The notes under the pieces are model-generated. The model was not told the origin of the DNA. It was given only the letters and a program-made list of their open reading frames with translations, and did not search any database. 64,000 nucleotides of DNA from an uncultured Planctomycetota bacterium (GTDB lineage Bacteria > Planctomycetota > Planctomycetia > Isosphaerales > Isosphaeraceae). The stretch is taken from NCBI GenBank assembly GCA_963823665.1, contig CAWGMQ010000003.1, positions 512,001-576,000 on the forward strand. Direction: 5' to 3'. Of this stretch, positions 23,358-52,517 are shown piece after piece; within the stretch, counting starts at the first letter, position 1, and each line of letters opens with the position of its first letter. The position numbers were made by a program, and so were the translations under genes.

Positions 23358-23858
23358 GGAGAGAAGCCGCTCACCGCGGGCGGGCCGTCGCCGGGCATGC
23401 CGGGGATGGCCCGATCGAGCCCTGAAGTCACAAGGGGTCGAACGACACTCATCGGAATGACGATTGGAAAAAGACATTTCGCGATCTGGTAATGGCTGAG
23501 ATGAGATTCAAGCCACGGTCCAACCAGCATGGTTCGCCGTCGCCGACGCACGCGTTCAACAGATGCAGCCCGGCGTCATCTGCGTCATCTGCGTCATTTC
23601 TCACTCCAAGCTTCTGGATTGTAGCGATCGTTCCTTTGATTCAGTTTCGATCGGTGCGTTCCCTTCGCTCGAGCTTCTGTCCCCGGCAATCCAACGTCCC
23701 GCATTGACATCGCGGCTTCGCCCCGACGCGGCTGAGCGAGCGCCTGCATGGCCCGCCGCTCGAACGCCCCCCGCTGCACACACCTCGCTCCGATGCTCCG
23801 CGCCGGAACGCCTTCCCTGCCGCTCGTCGGCGCGCTCGACGATGACATCCTTTCGTCG

Positions 23859-23893
23859 CCGTCCTCCGCCCTCCGTCCTCCGCCCTCCGTCCT
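23859..23893. repeat. Heptamer tandem repeat (CCGYCCT x5)
   Basis: CCGTCCT CCGCCCT CCGTCCT CCGCCCT CCGTCCT. Confidence 0.85.
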
Positions 23894-24797
23894 CGGCTTC
23901 ATGTTCGTTTTGTATTTTCGTCGCGCGTCCTTACGCCGCAAGGACTACGGGAATGCACTCGCTCGGTCGAGGTGGCGAACCATCGGCCGAATTCGAAGCC
24001 GAAACCCCGCCCGCGACCACGTCGCTTCGACCCAGAATCGCCACGGCGCGGCCCGCGTACGCGCTCCATCCCCCAAACCGTGGTAGACCACAATCCGCAA
24101 GTGCAAATGCGAAAACAACTTCGGCCGATCAAACAGCTTCTTTCCACCGGCTCGAAATGATATCTTTTGATAGCAAAAATCGAGACTCCTCGCCTTCCCC
24201 TCGCAGTTCAGAGTCCGGGGAGCGAACCCTGCTCTCGACCGACGACGCGGCAAAGCCGCCAGGGCGACAGAGTCAGCCCTGCGCAGCGGCCAGGTCTGCC
24301 TGGGTCTCGGTTTTGCGGCCTGGTTCAGATGATGGCTTCGGTCGATTCACGAGCCTCTCGCCCCCCGGTGCGAAATGATGCCAAAGTGATATCAATAAAT
24401 AAGCAAAAGCGAGCCGCCCATCGCGCCAGCATCGCGCGTTCGCAGACTCTGCCCTATGGATAATATGCGACCGGTTTCAGCGATCGGCAATAAAAGCACC
24501 CAAAAAAAAGTGCAATCAGTCGATCGACACGGCTGCAACGTCAGGAGCTGCGGCATTCCGGGTTCCAGTGACATGGGTGCTGCCTCGCGCCGACTCCAGT
24601 GTCGGCGATCGAGACTGAGCTATGTAGATTATGGGCCCACTTTCGCGATTCGGCCATTTCATCGACCAGAAAACCTGGGGTTTTTATTCCGATCGCAACG
24701 GATCCAACGATCAACGCGATCGCGGCCCCCGAATCGAAAGCCAACGCGCAGGTTCAATTGGGTCCATTCACCCGCCACACACCACCCGCAAGTAAGG

Positions 24798-28865: not shown

Positions 28866-29247
28866 AGCCGCGTAAGCGGCGACATCATATAGCCCGGCGG
28901 CGTAAGCCCCGGGTTTCCTGAAGTTCCCCAAAATGGCACCTACCAGCACGCCAGCCCCGAAGGGGCAACATCATATAGCCCGGCGGCGTAAGCCCCGGGT
29001 TTCCTGAAGTTCCCCAAAATGGCACCTACCAGCACGCCAGCCCCGAAGGGGCGACATCATATAGCCCGGCGGCGTAAGCTCCGGGTTTCCTGAAGTTCCC
29101 CAAAATGGCACCTACCAGCACGCTAGCCCCGAAGGGGCGACATCATACAGCCCGGCGGCGTAAGCCCCGGGTTCCCCGAAATGCCACCTACAAGCACGCC
29201 AGCCCCGAAGGGGCGACATCACGTAGCCCGGCGGCGTAAGCCCCGGG
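28866..29247. repeat. Tandem array of an 86-bp double-hairpin unit (five hairpin cores)
   Basis: ACATCA anchors at 28882, 28968, 29054, 29140 and 29216 (periods 86, 86, 86, 76); core AGCCCC-GAA-GGGGC...CCCGGCGGC-GTAA-GCCCCGGG. Confidence 0.92.
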
Positions 29248-29327
29248 CTCTGTGGGCCTCGGTTCCCTCCACCGACGGTCCGCGCGACCAACATCACATC
29301 CGCCCGCACGCCCCGCAATGGCCGACC

Positions 29328-31688
29328 CTACGACCCAATATCGCCGAGCCGCGCAACCGCCGCCCTGTCCCCCGGGCACTCCGCCAGCACCGCGCGCCAC
29401 TGGCACCTGGCCTCTTCGAGATCGCCCCGCTCCTGCGCCAGCGCCGCAAGATTCCGCCGCGTAAGATGCCCATAAATCCCTTGATCCAAACTCGCAAACT
29501 TCCGCGGCCGCGAGAGCGTCAAGATCCGCCGCCAACATTGTTCGGCCTCACCCGAATCGCCACGACTCCGATGCACAACCGCCTTCCGGAACCACAGCTC
29601 CGCATCCTCGGCATCGAGCGAAAGACCCTCCGCACAGCTCGCCAGTGCCGCCGGATAATCGCGCATCATCTGGAAAGCCCGCGCAATGAGCGCATACAGC
29701 TTACGGACAATCGAATCAGTCGGTGCTGACCCCGCCAGGCTTCGCTTGAAATACCCGAGCGCCTCATTCCACTCGGCCCGTTCAATCGCGATCGACCCCA
29801 GATTGAACAACGTAAACGCATCATCCGGCCGTTCCGCCAGCTCCTCGCGCAAAATGCGGCAATCCCGCTCGAGCTTCCTGAATCGAAGCGCCCGGTCAGA
29901 ATACCCCGTATGCCGCACCGTGATATCCTTCCACACCACTGGTACCCCGGCGCGTTTCAACGCCGGCAGAATCTGCTCATGAACGCGATACGTCCACCGC
30001 ACGCCTTCGATCAGCGGAAACAGCCGGATGTGATCAACAACCGTGTCTCCCCCCGAACCATCAGGCCCCGGGTCACACGCACACCGGACGACAAAGGCGG
30101 GAGCAAAAGGGGACTGGCTCCGGCCAAGGACGCCGGTGCCTGTCCCCTTTTGCGGGCTTCCCAAACACGAATGGTCCCCCCGCAAGCCCCCAATCAACTC
30201 CTCCAACTTCGCCCGCTCCGGCGGCTCAATCAAATCATCCGCATCAAGCCAAAACGCATAATCACCTGTGGCTCGAGCCAGCGCCGCATTCCGAGCCGCC
30301 CCAAAATCATCAACCCACACAAAATCAAACACCCGCGCCCCAAACGACCGCGCAATCTCGACAGTTCGATCGCAGCTCCCCGTATCCAGCACAACAATCT
30401 CATCAAACACCCCGCGCACCGACTCGAGACACGTTGAAAGGTTGGCTTCCTCATTCTTGACGATCATAGTGAGCGAGACAGCGGCACGGGCCGAAGAGGC
30501 GACGGGACCAGATTGAAAAGATTGATCCACAGATGACGCAGATTTGCGCAGATCAAGAGGAGGAATTATCATTGTTGGAGGTGTGGCCGCGGCCTTTCCA
30601 TTTCTTGTTCGTCCCTGATCATCCCGGCTTTCATCTGCGCAAATCTGCGTCCTCTGCGAACAGAAACTCCCCTGTTCATGACTTCGCTTCGCCGTCCGCG
30701 GACTACCTTCGAACGGCTCGAGTGCCACCCTCCGCCCCTGCGGAACCGCGTCGCCCCATTTGGCCGCGAACCTCGCCGCATTCTCATTGAGCACGCGCTC
30801 GGCATCGACGCCGTTGCCCACAAACGTCCTGCTGCCATAGTGGTGCACGAACAGATCATGCGCCACCGCCAGGGCAAAGCCAGCCCGCCTTGCCCGCTCA
30901 GCCAGATCATCGTCATCAAAGAACCCGAGCCCAAACCGTTCATCAAGCCCGCCGATGGCGTCATAAACGGCGCGCTTCATGAGCAGGCAGAAACCAGAGA
31001 GCTTCCGCACGGTAGACCACTGCCCGCGATGGTCGTCGCGCCAGCGGCGTGCAAAGACCTTCATCTCCTCGAGGTCGTGGTAAGGAACACTCTCCACCAA
31101 TTGGGGCGGCGCGGCATAATTCGACATCGGCCCGACCAGACCGATCTTCTCACTCGCTTTCAACGGTCCGCTTGTCTCCGTTTCATTTCCCGGCGCAAGA
31201 TCGATCACGGCGATACTCTTACCGGGGAATGGACGTGTCTCTGGCGGTTGGAAATGATCCGAATCGGAACTGTGTGTATCCATCTTGGATTCGGGGCTCT
31301 GTCCGCTGGATTGGGAGGTTCGGTCGTCGTCCTTCTCCACCGTTGTGGACAGAGCGACGAGCTGATCCAGCCATCCGTCGGTGACGACGACGTCGTTATT
31401 CAGCAACACCAGATACTCACCGCGCGCGTATTGCAACCCCTGGTTGATAGCAGTAGGAAACCCGCGATTGGTGCCGTTGGCGATGACGGTGACGGGCACG
31501 GGCGAGACGTCCTGGACCCCACCCAGATAATCAGCCGTCCCATCGGTCGACCCATTGTTGATGACGATCAACTCCCAAGGTGGCCTCGTCTGCCGCATGA
31601 GGGCCGCGACGCAACGCCGGGTGAACTCAAGCTGGTTCCAGCACGGGACGATGATCGACGCGAGTCGGCGAACGGATTGATCACTCAT
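29328..31688 (-). CDS. Tandem GT2-domain glycosyltransferase with C-terminal TPRs
   Basis: SIIVPCWN, NNGSTDGT, LLNND, FFDDDDL; second GT2 SLTMIVKNEE, DTGS, WLDADD, RVHEQI; TPR tail. Confidence 0.92.
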   Translation of the reverse strand: MSDQSVRRLASIIVPCWNQLEFTRRCVAALMRQTRPPWELIVINNGSTDGTADYLGGVQDVSPVPVTVIANGTNRGFPTAINQGLQYARGEYLVLLNNDVVVTDGWLDQLVALSTTVEKDDDRTSQSSGQSPESKMDTHSSDSDHFQPPETRPFPGKSIAVIDLAPGNETETSGPLKASEKIGLVGPMSNYAAPPQLVESVPYHDLEEMKVFARRWRDDHRGQWSTVRKLSGFCLLMKRAVYDAIGGLDERFGLGFFDDDDLAERARRAGFALAVAHDLFVHHYGSRTFVGNGVDAERVLNENAARFAAKWGDAVPQGRRVALEPFEGSPRTAKRSHEQGSFCSQRTQICADESRDDQGRTRNGKAAATPPTMIIPPLDLRKSASSVDQSFQSGPVASSARAAVSLTMIVKNEEANLSTCLESVRGVFDEIVVLDTGSCDRTVEIARSFGARVFDFVWVDDFGAARNAALARATGDYAFWLDADDLIEPPERAKLEELIGGLRGDHSCLGSPQKGTGTGVLGRSQSPFAPAFVVRCACDPGPDGSGGDTVVDHIRLFPLIEGVRWTYRVHEQILPALKRAGVPVVWKDITVRHTGYSDRALRFRKLERDCRILREELAERPDDAFTLFNLGSIAIERAEWNEALGYFKRSLAGSAPTDSIVRKLYALIARAFQMMRDYPAALASCAEGLSLDAEDAELWFRKAVVHRSRGDSGEAEQCWRRILTLSRPRKFASLDQGIYGHLTRRNLAALAQERGDLEEARCQWRAVLAECPGDRAAVARLGDIGS
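30103..30153. repeat. 51-bp palindrome inside the GT2 coding sequence
   Basis: GCAAAAGGGGACTGGCTCCGGC / 7-nt loop / GCCGGTGCCTGTCCCCTTTTGC; 20 of 22 bp complementary. Confidence 0.85.
30527..30659. repeat. Nonamer-triplet inverted-repeat element (GCAGAT variant) inside the GT2 coding sequence
   Basis: Left arm CCACAGATGACGCAGATTTGCGCAGAT (30527-30553), right arm ATCTGCGCAAATCTGCGTCCTCTGCGA (30633-30659); 24/27 complementary, 79-bp spacer. Confidence 0.88.
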
Positions 31689-31703
31689 AATGAAGCCTCA
31701 CTT

Positions 31704-31728
31704 GTAGCAGGCACACTCCGTGTGCCGT
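31704..31728 (+). repeat. GTAG-type REP palindrome
   Basis: GTAGCA-GGCACAC-TCC-GTGTGCC-GT; a degenerate inverted partner ending CTAC lies at 32106-32124. Confidence 0.75.
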
Positions 31729-31835
31729 CCGCCGCCAAAGCGAACGGCCAAAAAAACAACCTAAGGCGCAGCGCTAGCGCGCCGGATCGCCTCTCAAGCG
31801 GACCGCCGCGCGCAACCAGCAACCGCTAGCGAGCG

Positions 31836-32181
31836 AGCGTGTGATTCGTGGTCAAAAATCTTGCTCAGCCTCGAGCGATCTGCGCACCTCATCCATGCCG
31901 ATCAGCATCATCCGCGGACAGCTCGGCCTGTTAAGACCTTCTGCGTCATTCTGTGCCATCCATGGTCAGAAGTCTCACACGCCCTCTGCTGCATTTTTCA
32001 TCGGCGTCGAGCCGCGTCATCTGCGGACAGTTCTTATCTGACCGGCACGGTGGGCGCGCCTCAGGACATCCGAAGCGAAGATCCAAGGGCGCGCAGAGAG
32101 CCGACCGGCACTCACGACGACTACAACTTGCCGTCGCCCTGACCGGCCTCTCATCCGTGTCAATCAGTGCCATCCGTGGTT
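31836..32181 (+). repeat. Array of five same-orientation nonamer-triplet arms
   Basis: Arms at 31836-31853 (partial), 31891-31920, 31939-31967, 32000-32030 and 32153-32181; pattern ATC/TTC-nG-(C/T)G repeated three times at 9-10 bp period, ending GG(T/A). Confidence 0.75.
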
Positions 32182-32245
32182 AAAAAGTTTGCTTGCCTTG
32201 ATTCGCCTGCCTGCCCGCCGAGACTCGATATTTCTGGTTTGAGAT

Positions 32246-33001
32246 TCACCCCCGCTTCCTCCACAACACCCCCTTCCCATCAATATCCACGATTGGCTCG
32301 TTCACTCCGTGGTCCCGCCGATAATCCTCGACGGCCGCCCGGCAGCTCGGCATCGCCCCATAGTCATCCACAATGCAAAACCCCCCACGTGAGAGCCGCG
32401 GATAAAACCCGTCAAGCACCTGAATCGTCGATTCATACAAATCCCCATCGAGCCGAAGAACCGCGATCCGCTCAATCGGCGCGCCAGGCACCGTATCCTT
32501 GAACCACCCTTTGACCAACCGCACCTGCTCGCCCCACAGGCCCATGCGCCGGAAGTTCTCGACCACCTCTTCGACGCTCACGGCCAACTGTAGAAATCGA
32601 TAAAGCTGATCGCCACGATCCTCGGGATACTTGCCCTCATCCGGCGGTGGCAGTCCCTGGAAGGAATCGAAACCCCAGACCTGCCGGGTCTTGTCTTCGT
32701 GCGCCGCCAAGACTGCCGCCAGCATGATGCAGGCCCCGCCGCGCCAAATGCCGGTTTCGACAAAATCGCCTGGCACATTCTCGCGCACGACAGTTTCGCA
32801 GCATTCCCGCAGCGAGCGCAGTCGAATACGCCCGATCATGGTCATGGCTTGCTGGGGCCAATCCAATCCGCCATCGCGCTTGCGCGGGTCAAACACCGGC
32901 TGCGACCACGGGTCAACGGCCCGATCTTGATAGATCGCGTTGATGAGAACTTCTTGCATCAAGTCAAGGTAGCGGCCGACGATTCCGGGCGATTGGCTCA
33001 T
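32246..33001 (-). CDS. TylF/MycF/NovP family O-methyltransferase
   Basis: AMTMIG, PGDFVETGIWRGG, FDSFQGLP, KGWFKDT, LRLDGDLYEST, IVDDY. Confidence 0.95.
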   Translation of the reverse strand: MSQSPGIVGRYLDLMQEVLINAIYQDRAVDPWSQPVFDPRKRDGGLDWPQQAMTMIGRIRLRSLRECCETVVRENVPGDFVETGIWRGGACIMLAAVLAAHEDKTRQVWGFDSFQGLPPPDEGKYPEDRGDQLYRFLQLAVSVEEVVENFRRMGLWGEQVRLVKGWFKDTVPGAPIERIAVLRLDGDLYESTIQVLDGFYPRLSRGGFCIVDDYGAMPSCRAAVEDYRRDHGVNEPIVDIDGKGVLWRKRG

Positions 33002-33046
33002 CTGTTTGTAATCCCGTTGGTGCCTGCGCTGAACGCTGTTTTGTTG

Positions 33047-33391
33047 TCACGGCTCGCGTTGCTCGCGGCACAGGTAGATGTACGTTGGCTGGCCGCGCTT
33101 GACGGCCGGTCGCAGCTCGCCGGTCACGGTATCGGGCTCGACTACCAGGTAGCGCGTCGGGTTGTCACGGAATCGCTCGGTGGTGCCGTCGGGCTTGGCC
33201 AGGACGTAGACGCCCGCGGCCGCGTCGTGCGTGAAGCTGAATTGCCGGGGTTCCTCTCCGATCTCGTAGGTGTAGGTCGTGACCCCTTCACCTCCGTCAT
33301 CGCAGGTGTACCAGAACATGTGTCTCTCCGGCCGGCCAGTCTCAGCGGCGGCGTGTGGCGGCCGGTCGCTGTCAGGGGAATCAGAATTCAT
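33047..33391 (-). CDS. Hypothetical protein
   Basis: GGAGG RBS before ATG at 33391; GC-typical codon usage; no family recognised. Confidence 0.55.
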   Translation of the reverse strand: MNSDSPDSDRPPHAAAETGRPERHMFWYTCDDGGEGVTTYTYEIGEEPRQFSFTHDAAAGVYVLAKPDGTTERFRDNPTRYLVVEPDTVTGELRPAVKRGQPTYIYLCREQREP

Positions 33392-33439
33392 GGTTGTTCC
33401 TCCAAAGGGAATGGGCAATTCGAACTCCGCTGCGACTTT

Positions 33440-33970
33440 ATCTGCGTCAATCGGCGTCCTCTGCGGACAAGTCTGCTCCATTCGATCGCGTTGTGACGGC
33501 ATGCGCAGTCCGCCGCGATGACACCAGGCCTCTCCGACAGCCCGACCGGGAGTTTCGGCGACGGTGCCCCGAGCAAGCTCCCTCACAACCTTCCTATTCG
33601 TGTGATTCGTGTGATTCGTGGTTCAAAGTCTTGCTCCGCTTTCAGCGCTCTTCTGCGGCGATCAGCGTCATCTGCGGACAGCTTTTCCTGACCGACCCTT
33701 CCGTCCCATGCCGTGCGTGCTCAATGGTCCCGTAACGACATCCTTGAACCACGAAACACACGAACTACACGAAAGCAGAGGGAGTGGCATGAGTTAGAAT
33801 TGGCAATCACCTATTCGGACAAGAAACCTGCATCCGGACCGATTCGCGACCCAGGATTTGCAGATGCCTGACGCACTTCCTCTTCGTGTGTTTCGTCTTT
33901 TTCGTGGTTAAGAATCCCCTTCTGACTCAAGCCCCTTCTTATCTGCGTCATTCGGTGTCCTCTGCGGACA
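33440..33970. repeat. Second cluster of nonamer-triplet arms, including one complete inverted pair
   Basis: Single arms at 33440-33470, 33596-33623, 33651-33680 and 33941-33970; pair AACCACGAAACACACGAACTACACGAAA (33747-33774) / CTTCGTGTGTTTCGTCTTTTTCGTGGTT (33882-33909) with a 107-bp spacer. Confidence 0.85.
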
Positions 33971-34383
33971 AGTCTGCTCCATCTACGGGAAGACAATCGG
34001 CCGGTCGTGCTCAATCGCCACCGCACAAAGTTCCAACAGGCATTCAAACAGGTTCGCGCCGTTCGCGTCTCGGAAGCAATCGTAGAGCGACCCGGCCCAC
34101 GACATAACATTCAGCCAGCTCCTCCGGCTCCGTAGTATCGCCTAAATCCGACGCAAACACGTAGAGGCAATAACCCATTGCAGTTCTCCTTTCGCGAATA
34201 AGCGCCCGAGATCACCAAGCGATAAGTACGGACGCTTGGTTATTCGGTTGACGAACGATGCTCACAACTCCGGGAGCTCCCCGTTGGCATCAATGTGGGA
34301 GTGAGGGGGGAGTGAGACTGGCCTGTTGAAAACTTGCAGTATGCGGAGCGGAGATTTCCCGCCGCGAATGTTGCGCCAACTTT

Positions 34384-45300: not shown

Positions 45301-46934
45301 ATGGCCAGCGAGCGCAGGAAAGAACCGTCGCAGGGACTTGTCCGGGTGCGCTGCGTGGGCGTGCTTGCCTGGATGGTGGCCGTTCTCATGGGCACGGTAC
45401 GGATCAACGCGCGTGCCGGTGAGCCCGGCCAGGATCCGGGGGATCTGTTGGTCGTGCAACTGGTGCATCCCGAGGGGCAGGCGGAGGCTGTGCTGAAGCT
45501 CTTCCGGAGCGCTCGGGTGAGGCACCCCGCCGCGGCACTTGCCGCCTGGAAAGCGGCGGCCCGGCCACCGCGTGAGCTGGGCAAGCCGCTCGAGGCATTG
45601 ATCGCGTGCTTCAATCCCGAGATGTCGGGCGAATGGCGAGTGATGGATGGTGCGCGGCTCGCTGTGAACCTGGACCCGGCCAGCGGCCGCCCAGCCTGGC
45701 ATGCCCTCGTGCCGCGAGATGACGGAACGATCACGGCGGCCGTAGCGGCGATGCGGCTCTCGGACGGCGCGTCCGAAGCCCCGGTCGATTTCGCGGGCAA
45801 TCGAATCGCGGTGGAGCGGCTGGGACGGCCCGGAGCGGCCCTGGCTGCTCGTGCGGGCGATACCTTGATCTTCGGCAGCTCTCGCGACGAGCTGGTCCGC
45901 GCCGCGCGGAACCTGGCAGACGGCAAGGTCGGTGCATCAGGCGCGCCGGGCGCCCGGGAAAGCCGCTTCGATCTGGCGCGAGCTTTGTGCTCGATGCGAA
46001 CCGCCTTGCGAGCGAGCCGGCGACAACGACGACGACGCGGGCCATCGCCGAGTTGCTTCGCGGGCTTTCGTGCCGCCAGGTGGAAGGAAGCCTGGCACTG
46101 GAGGGCGACGCCCTCGGACTCGACTTTTCGATGCTGCTGCGACCGGAGGCCGGCCTCGGCTCGGCGTTGTGGAAGGGTTCTGCTCCGATCGATCCGGCCT
46201 GGCTCGAGCACGTGCCTGCCTCGCGCGCCATGGCCGTGATCTCGCTGGCCTTCCGCCCAACCCGGGAATTCTGGGACTCGGCCTTCGCGCTGGCCGATCG
46301 AGTGGAGAAAACCGATCCCGCCCGGGCCGAGACAGCCCCGTTGCGGGCGCGACTCAATTTGATGGCACGAACGGCCGGCGTTCGCCTGGAGGCCGACGTC
46401 TGGCCGCACCTCCGGGGGCTGACGGTGGGCCTCTTCGGTGAGCCCGGCCGACCGGGTCGACCGAACGGAGTGCTGGTCGCCCTGCACCTCGATTCCGAGG
46501 CGTCCGCCCAGCGGCTGATTTCGCGATCGGGTGCTGGGCTCACGAAGCTGGTTGGCCGCGAACTGACTGCCTGGCGCGCCGGAGGAGACGTACTGGTCGC
46601 GTGGGGGAACGGCGTCGCCACGGCCGCACGCGACGCAGCGGCCAACCGCGAGCGCTCGGTCGCACCACTTTGCACGAACTGGTCGCGAGCAAGCAAACCG
46701 GCGCCTCATCGCCTCGTTGCCGTCTGGCCGGCACGCTGCTGGCCGCTCGAGCAAAAACAAAAACCGATCGCGGCGGCCGCGGCGTGGTCCGTGCTCGCCG
46801 AAGACCCCCCTGCCCTCTGGCTGGGCTGGAACGAGGAGACCAAAGGAATTGATACGATCCGATGGGCGGGCCTCGACCGGCGCGTCGAGCGATTTCTCGA
46901 TCAGATTCCGCTGGAACAGGTTTCCGCTCGGTAA
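45301..46934 (+). CDS. Exported hypothetical protein (frameshift ~45985)
   Basis: Signal-like N-terminus, HPAAALAAWK, GKPLEALIACFNPEM; ORFs 45301..46239 and 45987..46934 join. Confidence 0.65.
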
Positions 46935-47206
46935 GACAGGGGTTCAGCCAATACCGCAACGTCCGACCGCCCGGCACATCCCAGAACGCACCTCGCTTTC
47001 CCTCAAGACCGCCAATCCGCTCAGTTCGAACCCGATTATCTTTGCTACATGCGAAAATCCGATGTAGAATACCCATTATTCCCAGTTTGGCAACTCCGAG
47101 GGCGGGCAGATTCGATCTCGTGTCCGAACGCCGCGGGAGTGCCTCGCCGTTCGCCGAAGCGGTATCACCGCGCCGGGTGTCGCCACATCGATGGTCCGAG
47201 CACAAC

Positions 47207-48859
47207 ATGTTTTCTGGAACGCTGTTGCGTCCATTGGCCAACCTCACTCGTCGTCTCGGGCGCAGGGTCAATCGTGGCCAGGCGACGAAGTCCCGGCCGA
47301 TGGGCGAGTGCCTCGAGTGCAGGTCGTTGCTTTCGAACGTGGTTGGTTGGAATGGGGGAAGCGGAGGCACGCAGAACTCGGCGATCACGCCCGCGAATAT
47401 CTCGCAATTGACGCAAAAGTACACGGACGTCGTCGACGGTGCCATCGTGGCCGAGCCCCTCGTTGCCTCGGTCGACATCACGGTCGGCCCCAACCAGGGA
47501 ACTCAGTCGGTGGTCTTCGTGGCGACGCAGCGCGACAGTCTTTACGCCTTCAATCTGAACTCGGGCGAGCTCGACTGGCACACCAGTTTTCTCATTCCGG
47601 GCCAGACAACGCTCACGTCGTCCGAACTGGACTTCGGGGGTAGCGGGATCATCGGCACACCGGCGATCGATTCTGCCGCGAACACGATGTACCTGGTCTC
47701 CTCGGAGAGTTACGGCGCCGGCAACGTCGTTCATTACATCAAGACTCTGCACGCGATCGATATGAGCGATGGAATGGAACGATCGGGGAGCCCGGTCGTG
47801 ATCGCCGATACGGGGTACGTTGGCACCACGGAGGTCAGCTTTGCGGGACCGAGCGTCCGTGGTACCGGCGCGGGCAGCGTGCGAGGGCGAGTGCAATTCG
47901 ATGTGCTGCGTCAGATGCAACGCCCTGGCCTGACGATTGACGGCAACAACCTGGTGATCGCCTTTGGATCGGCGGTGGGTGTAACGCCTTACTACCACGG
48001 CTGGCTCCTGGCGTACAACATGAACTCGCTCCAGCCAACCGGCGTTTTCAACGACACGCCGAACGGGCACAACGGCGGTATCTGGAATGACGGCAACCCG
48101 ATCCAGGTCGACTCCCAGGGTTATCTGTATACGGCAACAGGGAACGGCACGTTTGACGCGGCCCTGAACTCCAAGGGGTTCCCCAGCCGCGGCGACTTCG
48201 GAGATTCTGTGCTCAAGCTGGCGATCGATCCCGGGTACACAGGGCCAAACGGTTTCGGAATCCGTGTGGTCGATTACTTCACGCCTCGCAATCAAGCCAC
48301 GCTGGATAAGTATGATGAGGACCTGGCGTCATCGGGCGTGCTGCTGCTCCCCGATGGCGCGGGCGGGCCGAGGCATCCCAACCTGTTGCTCGCCTCCGGC
48401 AAACAGGGAACTCTTTACGTCATCAACCGGAACAATATGGGTCATTTTCACCCCTATTCCAACAAGGTATTCGAGGAGCTTCCCGGGGCTATTACCTCAT
48501 CCTTCGATACACCAGCGTATGACCTCGGCACGGTGTACTACGCCGGGGCCGGGGATGTCCTCAGGTCGTTCGCCGTTGTTAACGGACGATTGGTACCGAC
48601 CGGCCAGGGACCGAATACGTTTGGGCTGCACGGCGCGAGTCCGGTGGTTTCGTCCGATGGAACGGAGAACGGCATCGTCTGGGTGATTTCGAGCTCGAAA
48701 ACGTTGTTCGCTTACAATGCCACGAACGTGAGCACCGATTTGTGGTCTGCGAGTCTTCCCGGATATTCCACGTTTGCGATTCCCGATGTGACGAGCGACG
48801 GACATGTCCTGGTCGGTGCGGGAAATGTGTTGGTGGCGTTCGGATTGGGTGGGTCGTGA
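47207..48859 (+). CDS. Secreted PQQ-type beta-propeller protein
   Basis: ECLECRSLLS leader, VDGAIVAEPL, SLYAF, GIIGTPAID, YHGWLLAY, GGIW, TGNG, DYFTP, GKQG. Confidence 0.85.
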   Translation: MFSGTLLRPLANLTRRLGRRVNRGQATKSRPMGECLECRSLLSNVVGWNGGSGGTQNSAITPANISQLTQKYTDVVDGAIVAEPLVASVDITVGPNQGTQSVVFVATQRDSLYAFNLNSGELDWHTSFLIPGQTTLTSSELDFGGSGIIGTPAIDSAANTMYLVSSESYGAGNVVHYIKTLHAIDMSDGMERSGSPVVIADTGYVGTTEVSFAGPSVRGTGAGSVRGRVQFDVLRQMQRPGLTIDGNNLVIAFGSAVGVTPYYHGWLLAYNMNSLQPTGVFNDTPNGHNGGIWNDGNPIQVDSQGYLYTATGNGTFDAALNSKGFPSRGDFGDSVLKLAIDPGYTGPNGFGIRVVDYFTPRNQATLDKYDEDLASSGVLLLPDGAGGPRHPNLLLASGKQGTLYVINRNNMGHFHPYSNKVFEELPGAITSSFDTPAYDLGTVYYAGAGDVLRSFAVVNGRLVPTGQGPNTFGLHGASPVVSSDGTENGIVWVISSSKTLFAYNATNVSTDLWSASLPGYSTFAIPDVTSDGHVLVGAGNVLVAFGLGGS

Positions 48860-48864
48860 GCAGA

Positions 48865-49082
48865 GGGAACCACGAAACACACGAAACACACGAAAGTTAA
48901 AGAAAATCAACATACGACGATCCGTTCCACTTTCCGTTTATAGACAAGCCGAACCTTTATCCGGCGGCGTTCAACGCATTGTGAAACTGTGCGTGGTAGC
49001 GCCGCGAACGCCACGCCTTGACCGTTCTGACGTCGACGTGCTTTCCTCTTTTTTCGTGTGTTTCGTGTGTTTCGTGGTTCCC
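48865..49082. mobile_element. Non-autonomous (MITE-like) nonamer-triplet element
   Basis: Perfect 31-bp inverted repeat GGGAACCACGAAACACACGAAACACACGAAA (48865-48895 and 49052-49082) around a 156-bp spacer. Confidence 0.85.
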
Positions 49083-49130
49083 GCTCTTCCACCCACCGAA
49101 CACGATTCACATGAAACAGCCAGACGAGGA

Positions 49131-49504
49131 TCAGACGACGATTCGTTCGTATTCGAGCTTCGGGTGGTGACCGAAGTTCACGAGCAAGCCCAGCCAGTAG
49201 CCCGTCGCCTTCAAATAATTGTGGACCTGGGCGCGGTGGACATCGTCGAACTCCTTGACTGCTTTGAGTTCCACCACAATCTTCTCCCAGCAGACGAAAT
49301 CGGGTTCGTACACCTGCTTCAGAAGCCGGCTCTTATAAGCAACTTCAATTTGGATTGAGCCTGGAACGGTATGTCCTGTAGTCCCAGTTCGATCTCAATA
49401 CACTCTTGATACACCGGTTCCAGGAATCCGCTTCCCATCTCCTTGTAGACCTCGAAGCACGCCCCGATGATGCGATCGCTTTCATCTGGGTAGATGAGTG
49501 CCAC
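49131..49504 (-). CDS. GxxExxY protein (PD-(D/E)XK nuclease superfamily); 1-bp frameshift ~49340
   Basis: IIGACFEVYKEMGSGFLEPVYQEC, YEPDFVC, IVVELKA, AQVHNYLKATG, GLLVNFG; flanked by nonamer-repeat arms at 49091-49116 and 49519-49539. Confidence 0.92.
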
Positions 49505-49564
49505 TTTGAACTCTCCCCTTTCGTGTGTTTCGTGGTTCCTCGCCGAATCCCTGCACGACGGGCT

Positions 49565-50011
49565 TCAGGCCTCACGCGCGCCGTGCACGTTATTCAGGAA
49601 CCTGCATCGATTCATCGACTGCCAAACTGTAACAAAGAAGGGCACCGTTGTGGCGATCAATCCGGCCGCGAGGAACATTCGCACCTGGCGCCGGATTTCA
49701 TCCCACGAGCGATGGGCGCCGTCCCCTTCACCTGTTATGGCCATGTAAACGATCCACAACATCGCCCAGACGCCGATTGAAAAAGTGAGCCACGCGACAC
49801 GATCGGAGAGCTTGGCCGTCGAGAGTCTCGTGGCGATTCGAATCCGCCATCCGGTTGTCGCGTCGATCGTCCACAGAATGAAGATCAACATGCACCCCAG
49901 TGTGCCTCCAGAGGCGATCACCAGTGAGAGCCAGATGGTGAATGCCGCACAGCGACCAGTCAGCGAGACGTGATCGGATTTGCGAAAGAGCCGGGGACCG
50001 GCGCGGGGCAT
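49565..50011 (-). CDS. Small membrane protein, hypothetical
   Basis: Three hydrophobic segments; start uncertain. Confidence 0.45.
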   Translation of the reverse strand: MPRAGPRLFRKSDHVSLTGRCAAFTIWLSLVIASGGTLGCMLIFILWTIDATTGWRIRIATRLSTAKLSDRVAWLTFSIGVWAMLWIVYMAITGEGDGAHRSWDEIRRQVRMFLAAGLIATTVPFFVTVWQSMNRCRFLNNVHGAREA

Positions 50012-50087
50012 GTCGTTCTCGAAGAAGCCGAAGCGCCTCAACGGGGAATCTCGTGGACTGCCAGTTCGCCGCATCGGCCGATCGTCC

Positions 50088-52517
50088 CTAACGCTTCTCC
50101 AGCGTCAGTGTTCCCAGATCGACCGGTTTATCGTCCTTGGCCGGCGGCACATGGAAGATATGCTCGAGCAGACGACCAACTGCTCGATCCGCCCGAAAGA
50201 AATCCACCGAGAGCGCATGATCACCCGCCGGGACGTCGTCGATCCGGAACGAGCCGTCGCGGTCGACAGTGGCCGTGAACTGGTAGCTGGCTCCATCCGG
50301 TGACGTGGTTGAGCATCGTACGGTGATGAGCGCGAAATTCCATCGAACTTTTTCCTTGAAACCGTCCGGCGGCCGGAGCTTGCCGACAACTGCTCGGCCG
50401 GTACCGCCAAGATCGATCTGAAAGGTCTTGCCGGCAGGGAATTCTGCCGGAACCGAGGCGGCCGAAGTGACCTCAGTCGCTCCGTCGTCGGCGGTGAGCG
50501 ATAGGCGGCGGCCGATCCAGCCTTTGCCGGGGATGACGCGCTCGAAAACGAACTGTCCGTCGGGCCCGGTGACCGAATTGTATTCAACGGAGAAACGCGG
50601 TTCATTCCGCCCGTGTCCAGTCAAGCGAGACACATCAAGCTGGATCGGCACATTCGGGGCCAGCGCCTTTCCAATCCGGAAGGTCCCGTGCACCCTGGAC
50701 CAGGGTTCCAGATGGATGATCCGCGTCAGATCCCACTCAGGGGTCGACTTGATGTACGCAAAGCCCGACGGATGGGTGATGATGAGCTGGAAGTCCTTAT
50801 CCTGCGCCGGAAAATGAAAGCGGCCGGATGCGTCGGTGTCTTCTCGAGCACTGTAGACGGGGGGATCTGCGATGTCGCCGTTCTTGATATTGATCTGGGA
50901 AGCGGCCACTGCGAGCGCCACCTTGGCCCCTACCGCGGGGCGGTTTGCCGGGGTGAAAACCCGGGCGGCGACGTTCTTTCCTTCAGTCAGCTCGAAATCA
51001 ATCGACACACGACCTTCGTCGCTCTTGATCGCACGCGAGCTGGATGGCCGATAGCCGTCGGCTTCGATCCGGATGACATTGAAATCCGCACGCGTGCGGC
51101 GAATGGTGTACCGGCCATCGGAGGCCAAGTGGTTCTCATTTCTGGCGTAGTGCATCTCCTGATCAGCCGCCTGGAAGCCTGGTACGACCCGGAATTTCTT
51201 GATCGGGTTCTTCGTCACTGCGTCGACGACCTTGCCCGAAACGACGAGAGCCGGAGATGTCCGAAAGACGTATTCCTCGGCTCGGGCGATGAGCGGTTGT
51301 GCTTCAAGCTCCATTCCGTCAGGAGGACAGATATCCGCGCTGAACTCATCGAGTGGTGCTTCGTTCCAGACCCACTCGCCCTTCTCGTTGGCATATTGAC
51401 TGACATGATTGAATTCGAAGTACTCGAACTGCCCCCGCCATCGCTGGAAGAAGATCCGCGCCTTGGGAACGGGATTACCCTTTACGTCGACCACCCGGAT
51501 GCGGACCGTGCCGCCGCGCTTCAGCTTGAAGTCGACCGGTCCCATCCCGGGCTCGATGGTCAGCTCCTTCATATCCGTTGCCCGGCCCGTTGCGGAAACC
51601 ACGATTCGGGTCGCTCGCGGCTCGCAGCCGGCGAGCTGGTAAATCCCGTCGGCGCCCGTCTTCGCTTCGCGGATGTCGTTGACAAACTTGGTGCGGACGA
51701 GTGCCCCGACGATCGGTTTTCCCGAATCATCTGTGACCCTGCCGGTGACCGCCAAACCGCGATCCAGAACGATTCTGGCCTCGGGTTCCCGGCCGCGCTT
51801 GATACCGAACTCGCCGGGCCCCAGCGCTCGGCTAGCCGATTTGAAGTGCGGATGATCGATCCCGACGTAGACTTCGGACATCGAGACCGGCACGCTGTCG
51901 AACCGCCACTTCCCGGCTGCGTCGGTCTTCACACGCGCACCGATTGCCAGTTGGCGAAGATCGCCGGAACGCTTCTTGAATTCGATGCTGGGAGTGACCG
52001 TCACGCCTTCAACCGGTTTTCCTTCGGGATCGACAATGATCCCCCCGACCGACCAGCCCGCCTCGAGCGTGGCGGTAAACGTCGAAGGAATGACTTCATC
52101 ATGGGTTTCCGACGACCAGCTCGCCCAGTACGGTCCGTAACCGGGAGTCGTGATATCGACATCGAGACTCGTCGGCATCTGTGGGAGATCGATGACAAGT
52201 CGCCCTTCGCCATCAGCCATCAGGAACGCGCCGTAGGATCCCTTCCTCAGGAACTTGCCGTGGCGGATCTGCTCGGCCGTCGGAACGGGATTCGTACGAA
52301 CGTGGACGAGGGCCTCCGCGATCGGTTTCCCGTCCGGGCCGACAACGCGAAGCTCGAATCCCGACTCGTTCTTGCCGGGCGCCGCGGCGGGCGTCGCCTG
52401 CGCGCCCTGCTGGCCCGGGACCGCTGCTTCGCCGGCGCGCACGTGAGGAACCGAGATGATGGCGAGCAGAATCAATCCGGGAAGCGACCATGCACGAGGC
52501 GCATTACGAATCCCCAT
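50088..52517 (-). CDS. Secreted protein with repeated carboxypeptidase-regulatory-like domains
   Basis: Signal peptide; repeats of G.VVD..GKP(I/V).GA.V and TD..G.F. Confidence 0.85.
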   Translation of the reverse strand: MGIRNAPRAWSLPGLILLAIISVPHVRAGEAAVPGQQGAQATPAAAPGKNESGFELRVVGPDGKPIAEALVHVRTNPVPTAEQIRHGKFLRKGSYGAFLMADGEGRLVIDLPQMPTSLDVDITTPGYGPYWASWSSETHDEVIPSTFTATLEAGWSVGGIIVDPEGKPVEGVTVTPSIEFKKRSGDLRQLAIGARVKTDAAGKWRFDSVPVSMSEVYVGIDHPHFKSASRALGPGEFGIKRGREPEARIVLDRGLAVTGRVTDDSGKPIVGALVRTKFVNDIREAKTGADGIYQLAGCEPRATRIVVSATGRATDMKELTIEPGMGPVDFKLKRGGTVRIRVVDVKGNPVPKARIFFQRWRGQFEYFEFNHVSQYANEKGEWVWNEAPLDEFSADICPPDGMELEAQPLIARAEEYVFRTSPALVVSGKVVDAVTKNPIKKFRVVPGFQAADQEMHYARNENHLASDGRYTIRRTRADFNVIRIEADGYRPSSSRAIKSDEGRVSIDFELTEGKNVAARVFTPANRPAVGAKVALAVAASQINIKNGDIADPPVYSAREDTDASGRFHFPAQDKDFQLIITHPSGFAYIKSTPEWDLTRIIHLEPWSRVHGTFRIGKALAPNVPIQLDVSRLTGHGRNEPRFSVEYNSVTGPDGQFVFERVIPGKGWIGRRLSLTADDGATEVTSAASVPAEFPAGKTFQIDLGGTGRAVVGKLRPPDGFKEKVRWNFALITVRCSTTSPDGASYQFTATVDRDGSFRIDDVPAGDHALSVDFFRADRAVGRLLEHIFHVPPAKDDKPVDLGTLTLEKR

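Follow-up and report, generated by a model that had tools for sequence, protein, structure and literature searches.

Two tandem cassettes in the 64-kb window

The stretch of DNA analysed here (the window) is 64 kb in length and corresponds to G000:C3:512001-576000; the source genome, G000, is 16.5 Mb in size and consists of 12 contigs. Two cassettes are arranged in tandem on the minus strand. In minus-strand order, cassette 1 contains one two-box arm (49539-49519), one ribosome-binding site, the GxxExxY gene (49504-49131) and one degenerate inverted arm (49116-49091). In cassette 2, one three-box arm (49085-49052) and one inverted three-box arm (48895-48862) are separated by 156 nt, and the stop codon of a convergent host ORF follows. 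The upstream arm of cassette 1 (49519-49539, minus strand) is composed of a head and two CACGAAA boxes, the place of the third box being taken by the ribosome-binding site; as the original prediction had it, the arm stands directly ahead of GGGGAGAG and GTG. According to our reading of the sequence, the purine-rich ribosome-binding site and the spacer ahead of the GTG occupy 49505-49518 (minus strand).

The GxxExxY/PDDEXK_3 gene (49131-49504, minus strand) is 374 nt in length and contains ~124 codons, in agreement with the ~125 residues proposed originally. A one-base frame break at about 49330-49355, which may reflect a recent loss or an assembly error, splits the gene into two halves; both exceed the TIGR04256 cut-off of 35, with 51.1 and 80.6 bits, and they represent two of the ten TIGR04256 matches in G000. 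Four small-share DNA read sets gave no reads over the gene. Against PF13366 the gene scores 81.7 bits, and its only matches are to GxxExxY/PDDEXK_3. The downstream arm (49091-49116, plus strand) lies 14 nt beyond the gene stop. It is degenerate and falls below the threshold of the arm scan; none of 3694 random 40-mers of the window scores as high, and the inverted arm that had been proposed at this position is thus real.

The upstream arm of cassette 2 (49052-49085, minus strand) was identified by both the inverted-repeat search and the arm scan and contains three CACGAAA boxes; the downstream arm (48862-48895, plus strand) begins within a few bases of position 48859, where the convergent host ORF has its stop codon. 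Together they form the longest inverted repeat in the window, 34 nt at 97%. Cassette 2 had been described as an empty element with a perfect 31-bp inverted repeat; the repeat is real, but the interior holds the decayed last part of a gene. The 156-nt interior matches a DNA profile built from 67 related genes (nhmmer, E 9.5e-4), and the matching part, the decayed 3' third of a GxxExxY gene (48908-49017, minus strand), is the only other match of this profile in the window. Aligned as DNA with the neighbouring gene, the remnant scores 63.5, compared to a maximum of 48 in 1000 shuffles. No second copy of the interior was found in G000 or in its sole congener, G001; cassette 2 is therefore a deletion relic and not the multi-copy, MITE-like derivative that had been supposed. 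Owing to the presence of the decayed gene third, the locus is a tandem of two decaying cassettes, one frameshifted and one internally deleted, and the arms of cassette 2, 97% complementary, have outlasted their gene.

No promoter-like site was found across 48700-50200, so the GxxExxY gene is likely transcribed from upstream host transcription. In G001, a ParE-type toxin-antitoxin pair (L031:745-1385) is located between the same flanking genes; it replaces the whole 3.1-kb block, and for this reason no arm-level boundary can be read at the window locus. The ORFs adjoining the cassettes (46862-48859 and 49565-50074) have no Pfam match, and the locus has no Rfam match. For ORF 46862-48859, G000 contains a paralogue and G001 a homologue without arms downstream.

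Other arms in the window

About a dozen related arms had been reported at 23.6 and 30.5-34 kb. Twelve three-box arms are indeed present at 30.5-34.0 kb, whereas the 23.6-kb feature (23568-23602, minus strand) is a GCAGAT-like 9-bp tandem that lacks the head, was not called by the arm scan and is a doubtful member. The whole window contains 15 three-box arms, compared to 0-2 in five simulated windows; the fixed-spacing arm pattern gives 6 matches against 0.10 expected. One gene-less inverted pair of GCAGAT type (30524-30662) is inserted in frame in the linker of a 786-aa glycosyltransferase ORF, as had been noticed before; among the paralogous linkers, the pair is absent in four and present in two. 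Four arms of the same orientation (31891-32182, minus strand) lie between the glycosyltransferase and TylF-family genes, and six arms of two types (CACGAA and GCAGA) occupy 33440-33970, including one inverted pair at 33746-33910.

G000 and G001 contain many repeats of the glycosyltransferase/TylF module (window 29500-34200), accompanied by arm arrays that vary in number and are built of 152-216-bp units. Window 29.5-31.1 kb has a 99% duplicate at G000:C3:447100-448680. At 28874-29261 there is an 86-bp tandem unit in four copies, each with a match to the Rfam Acido-Lenti-1 RNA.

Predicted structure of the GxxExxY protein

The structure was predicted for L001, one intact paralogue of the window gene (pLDDT 95). 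Its best structural match is the Cas4 protein SSO0001 (PDB 4ic1), with an E value of 5e-5 and a TM score of 0.66; a second comparison of the two gave a Z score of 8.5 and an rmsd of 4.2 over 100 aligned positions. In an alignment of 71 sequences, 11 columns are invariant, and all 11 residues are present across the two halves of the window gene; the catalytic E, D, ExK and QxxxY columns are invariant in the same alignment. The fold and the catalytic E, D, ExK and QxxxY residues, which are used to define PD-(D/E)XK nucleases of Cas4/RecB type, are thus found in the L001 model and the alignment, and the GxxExxY protein is predicted to be a minimal Cas4-like member of that type. Search of the ESM Atlas returned nothing beyond GxxExxY clusters. 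PF13366 is given as a family of unknown function in PMC3424549.

Arms accompany GxxExxY genes across the family

For the family-wide analysis, 286 loci were gathered from a phylum search, from genome and metagenome collections and from viral contigs; in the viral contigs, the single-protein search gave 0 loci and the alignment search gave 5. Of the 225 distinct intact genes that a motif search yielded, 16 were removed for their short flanks, leaving 209, a set biased toward best-scoring, intact genes. The arm consensus consists of a head, the last base of which is C, and three CRCNRAD boxes spaced at 8-10 bp. The triplets were first described as phased at 9 bp; across the family their spacing is not always 9. 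One inverted repeat links both flanks in 155 of the 209 genes, the corresponding figures being 3 of 151 for control windows and 5% for 400 cross-gene pairs. Arms had been expected to be enriched around GxxExxY genes, and they are: 197 of the 209 genes have an arm within 250 bp (47 of 264 controls), and 116 lie within an inward-facing pair (2 of 264 controls). The seventh box base is the same in both arms in 173 of 180 cases, the permutation maximum being 81. Same-orientation and single arms are also common. Arm-flanked members of the window gene's clade are labelled with 12 phyla, some of these bins possibly being mislabelled.

Among L053, L060, L044 and L066, the gene of some cassettes runs into the downstream arm and ends there; in other cassettes the host stop codon itself is the arm head. 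A fourth arm type, which starts with GAACAG and is outward-facing, flanks L003, L004, L009 and L010 of G000, members of a long-branch clade; this type is outside the arm model used for the counts.

Within the phylum, 154 of 301 genomes have a match to the family and 147 have none. At least 10 exact arms were found in 114 of the 154 gene-positive and 10 of the 147 gene-negative genomes (medians 28.5 and 0), and the gene-positive genomes contain 10,650 exact arms in total, against 588 gene matches. Because kin genomes are not independent, arm counts were also compared within the 22 families that contain both kinds of genome; the gene-positive genomes were higher in 15, lower in 5 and tied in 2 (p 0.04). 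Arm counts thus track the presence of the gene, as had been anticipated, although within families the excess is modest. Arm-rich genomes without the gene do exist, one of which (G080) has 138 arms, and no PF13366 match above cut-off was found in five such genomes that were rechecked; recent gene loss or incomplete assembly would explain them. Arms also form gene-less inverted doublets with a variable spacer. Gene remnants were detected by nhmmer in 4 of 114 gene-less interiors, compared to 0 of 570 shuffles and 1 of 39 outward-facing gaps, a test that missed leader remnants recovered in G000 by direct alignment.

Residue-to-base covariation between protein and arms

The arm variant was predicted to follow the protein clade, and it does so: on the protein tree, 14 changes of the seventh box base are counted, compared to 77-99 in 500 shuffles. 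Such agreement alone could arise from linkage. Covariation between single residues and single bases gives independent support for arm recognition. With the G of GxxExxY numbered as 21, all 87 cassettes with Thr4 carry G at box position 5, and 72 of the 86 with other residues carry A. The rule is present in all three protein groups, its weakest case being Ser in the GLLE group (54% G). Of 21 changes of the base at box position 5, 16 coincide with changes of residue 4 on a tree from which these columns were left out. In the window gene's clade, Asn16 is present in 17 of 18 cassettes with T at box position 7, and Lys or Arg in 48 of 49 with A; outside this clade T also occurs with Lys or Arg, so the Asn16 rule is one-way only.

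Columns 4 and 16 were picked by scanning all columns, and they share 15 and 8 changes with their box positions, compared to 5 and 3 for the runner-up columns; each of the two box positions is tracked by one column rather than by a block of neighbours. A weak association between residue 119 and box position 2 was dropped. The rule was then applied to a held-out set of 40 further loci (39 genes, 33 with arms), where Thr4 goes with G in 20 of 20, other residues with A in 11 of 13 and Asn16 with T in 8 of 8. The window gene has Ser4 and Lys16, for which the rule predicts CACGAAA, the box found in its arms. In the L001 model both residues are located in predicted helix 1.

On poorly resolved trees, seven independent pairs for Thr4 (starred branches) gave 4.7 changes the same way and 0 the opposite way, with a median p of 0.06, and four pairs for Asn16 gave p 0.5; one single origin of Asn16 in the window gene's clade is not rejected (p-AU 0.175), and the changes may not all be phylogenetically independent. 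Among 31 genomes with one full-length gene, 20 have at least 6 arms; in these 20, arm type across the genome goes with the clade to which the lone gene belongs (rho -0.54, p 0.015), with three clear exceptions, which suggests that the GxxExxY protein may recognise arms in trans. The protein very probably recognises its arms.

Movement, copies and tempo of the cassettes

Filled and empty sites in relatives, which the original prediction had proposed to look for, could be found. At one junction between genes that we take, from their sequences, to be groES- and groEL-like, G323 carries a 523-nt cassette, and the GxxExxY gene is absent in all five relatives. In genus g67, one junction is occupied by three different types of cassette across six genomes: three genomes have a G-box cassette, two have T-box arms around a deleted gene, and the sixth has a PF05635 gene; the junction is empty in none of them. 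G325 and G327 differ at two examined sites and share two others, at one of which both arms changed together. Cassettes 92-96% identical occupy unlike sites (L173/L185 and L244/L271); their similarity mostly ends within ~10 nt of the arm heads, L173 and L185 sharing extra flank.

No target-site duplication was evident, direct repeats of at least 6 being present in 10% of 116 flank pairs and 7% of permuted ones; a duplication may be hidden within the arm head. Neither a nucleotide-exact empty site in the relatives compared nor a shared target sequence among the cassette flanks was found. In 98 long-flank cassettes, analysed with a crude ORF caller, the upstream host ORF shares the strand of the cassette in 57, lies opposite in 2 and is unclear in 39, and the arm begins a median of 6 nt after the upstream host stop codon. 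This co-directional bias is most simply read as selection for cassettes that are transcribed although they have no promoter of their own.

The leader and first codons of the L001 gene recur in G000 in 197-bp tandem units and in one lone element located on a different contig, showing that deletion derivatives do multiply. The copies within one genome have a median identity of 50%, and only 1 of 41 pairs reaches at least 90%; they are old and give no sign of IS-like bursts. Orthologues at the same site, chosen from intact genes, have dN/dS values of 0.03-0.20 in 15 pairs, and 6 more pairs are saturated. Such strong purifying selection at fixed sites should not be expected for a purely selfish sitting copy. 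The gene-bearing cassette thus moves slowly, under purifying selection at fixed sites, and is more RAYT-like than IS-like; the slow tempo leaves room for a host benefit. The family is present in 8 of 72,556 plasmid records and was not found in 50,697 phage records. As in cassette 2, arms can outlast the gene they enclosed at other loci as well.

Other elements were observed in or beside the cassettes. In L332 (G131), an unrelated palindromic repeat is nested in a deleted GxxExxY cassette, inside the arm pair. At L398:2897-4895 (G000:C6), immediately 5' of the L006 GxxExxY gene, a group II intron (RF00029 end and RT-like ORF) is inserted into sequence that resembles an arm; from this one case, arms may be group II intron targets. 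A parallel cassette type combines heptamer-like repeats with a PF05635 four-helix-bundle gene and uses the same slots as GxxExxY cassettes; heptamer-type sites include L333:3001-3381, L069 near 1380-1480 and window 23856-23897, and the type also occurs as a gene-less pair and as a tandem.

A nuclease that may mobilise arm-bounded DNA

The gene-plus-arms system is real, widespread and apparently undescribed; within the open-access literature, we found no description of the arms or of the system. We consider it probable that a Cas4-like nuclease cassette reads its own arms and likely cuts there, with host repair mobilising the arm-bounded DNA, and that the GxxExxY protein is the mobiliser. The first helix of the protein would likely serve to read the boxes in double-stranded DNA, and the protein would then likely cut at the arms; host repair would copy, delete, duplicate or reinsert the DNA between them. 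A few old and selected gene copies, each matched to one arm type, may thereby sustain a much larger population of gene-less arm pairs. PD-(D/E)XK enzymes hydrolyse DNA and, to our knowledge, none joins DNA, for which reason host repair is assigned the remaining steps. Cutting followed by host repair would be consistent with the lack of target duplication, with empty sites being ragged and with tandem duplications and deletions being frequent; this step, which we infer, is the weakest part of the explanation. The original prediction held that the nuclease reads the triplets and spreads itself together with gene-less copies. This is supported in part: covariation argues for the reading, and cassettes occur at differing sites, but the tempo is slow. 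The cassette anatomy, the family-wide link, the presence/absence and swapping at operon junctions, the deletion derivatives and the residue-to-base covariation are observations; from them we infer binding, cutting and cuts as the cause of movement.

The arms and the gene could also be co-inherited passengers, the arms not being recognised by the protein at all. Covariation at clade level is what linkage alone would give, and the independent-pair tests fall short of p 0.05; this reading is nevertheless highly improbable, as single columns rather than neighbouring blocks track single box positions, the rule held in the 39 held-out genes, and gene-less arms elsewhere in the genome follow the resident clade. 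Pairing of the arms in the transcript, the insert being looped or cut out like a 23S rRNA intervening sequence, would account for the long stem into which an arm pair folds (DNA fold z -9) and for insertions at operon junctions; size and stem length are also near those of the Coxiella element (PMC4990558). The arm mismatches, on the other hand, contain no G-U excess on the sense strand (G-U 90, A-C 91), spacer bases match in 60% between a cassette's own arms and 49% with the nearest relative, compared to 77-100% for box bases, and same-orientation and single arms are common. This pattern agrees better with DNA boxes bound by a protein than with an RNA stem under selection, and we regard the RNA-level explanation as very unlikely; a DNA hairpin or cruciform is a possible substrate.

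It is also conceivable that the arms, bound by the GxxExxY protein, serve the host as landmarks for repair, gene-border recombination or chromosome or transcript handling, the cassettes moving rarely and passively. Purifying selection at fixed sites up to dS > 1, the lack of copy bursts, the rarity on plasmids and absence from the phage records searched, and arms that outlast the enclosed gene are all in line with this; yet no match is present in 147 of the 301 genomes searched in the phylum, slots differ between congeners, the gene itself is packaged between arms, and several dissimilar clades, each with arm types of its own, coexist in every genome, and we hold this role to be unlikely. The mover might instead be borrowed, a reverse transcriptase or host recombinase, the GxxExxY protein being an arm-binding accessory or self-regulator, as the four-helix-bundle cargo may be; that cargo (PF05635) has no known catalytic role (PMC4990558). 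A 23S_rRNA_IVP (PF05635) cassette in the same slot in G060, a heptamer inverted pair at the groES-groEL-like junction in G211, the group II intron upstream of L006 and the strong sense-strand bias (57 against 2) could be so explained. An accessory binder would not need the invariant catalytic residues, and no partner gene is present within the 420-830-nt unit; a borrowed mover therefore seems improbable to us.

If the nuclease-mobiliser explanation is true, it would provide a substrate and a role for a large family that is widespread (154 of the 301 genomes sampled in the phylum) and has no assigned function, and it would explain a very common class of unexplained intergenic repeats. We know of no transposon class that runs on a lone Cas4-like nuclease, and the chemistry would therefore be new. 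We lean slightly toward regarding the system as a new class of mobile DNA, with a lone ~120-residue Cas4-like nuclease, three phased boxes per end, a switchable amino-acid code, no target duplication, up to hundreds of gene-less copies per genome and a distribution over at least a dozen phyla. The residue-to-base rule allows the idea to be tested by two point swaps, and it may offer a very small re-targetable DNA-binding nuclease.

Comparison with known systems

Homing endonucleases of PD-(D/E)XK type are small restriction-like nucleases with long stays at one site. GxxExxY cassettes share the long stays, and their spread could likewise run through host break repair; different from homing endonucleases, they have no host intron or intein, occupy many unrelated sites, and carry a code that points to reading of the element's own ends rather than of an empty target. 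Compared to Cas4/RecB-type nucleases such as SSO0001, the L001 model has the same fold and the alignment the same E, D, ExK and QxxxY pattern; the GxxExxY protein, however, is only ~120 residues in size, lacks invariant cysteines for an iron-sulfur cluster, has no cas or helicase partner in its unit and appears to read sequence through the N-terminal helix.

Like insertion sequences with their MITEs, and like Tn7, whose TnsA is a PD-(D/E)XK nuclease (PMC3424549), the cassette has one gene between inverted ends with repeated binding boxes (binding being predicted here), and like the former it has internally deleted derivatives. Unlike them, it contains no known transposase family (DDE, tyrosine, serine or HUH), and it has neither target duplication nor near-identical copies within genomes. 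The ORF-bearing 23S rRNA intervening sequence (S23p/PF05635; PMC4990558) is a ~430-nt unit with one small ORF and inverted ends; the GxxExxY cassette is also a small one-ORF unit between inverted ends, and PF05635 cassettes share its slots, but it is located between protein genes, has a nuclease (PF13366) as cargo and lacks the G-U signature.

REPINs (10.1101/2021.07.10.451892; PMC3733652) are ~100-bp gene-less elements with two inverted repeats and a variable spacer, present in up to hundreds per genome; the RAYT is a few-copy chromosomal gene flanked by its own repeat and under purifying selection, with several enzyme/repeat pairs per genome. The GxxExxY system shares these features: it has gene-less inverted doublets of ~100 bp with a variable spacer, up to hundreds per genome, whose number follows the presence of the gene, a matched few-copy chromosomal enzyme gene that is flanked by its own repeat and under purifying selection, and several enzyme/repeat pairs per genome. 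Different from REPIN-RAYT, the enzyme is a PD-(D/E)XK nuclease with matches only to GxxExxY/PDDEXK_3 and not HUH/Y1, and the arm is a head with three spaced CRCNRAD boxes instead of the palindrome with GTAG or CGTC tag described there; the GxxExxY gene is enclosed by its two arms and does change site, whereas a lack of movement is reported for RAYTs. Taken together, the GxxExxY system works most like REPIN-RAYT, yet it departs from that system in its defining features, as it does from insertion sequences with MITEs and from rRNA intervening sequences.
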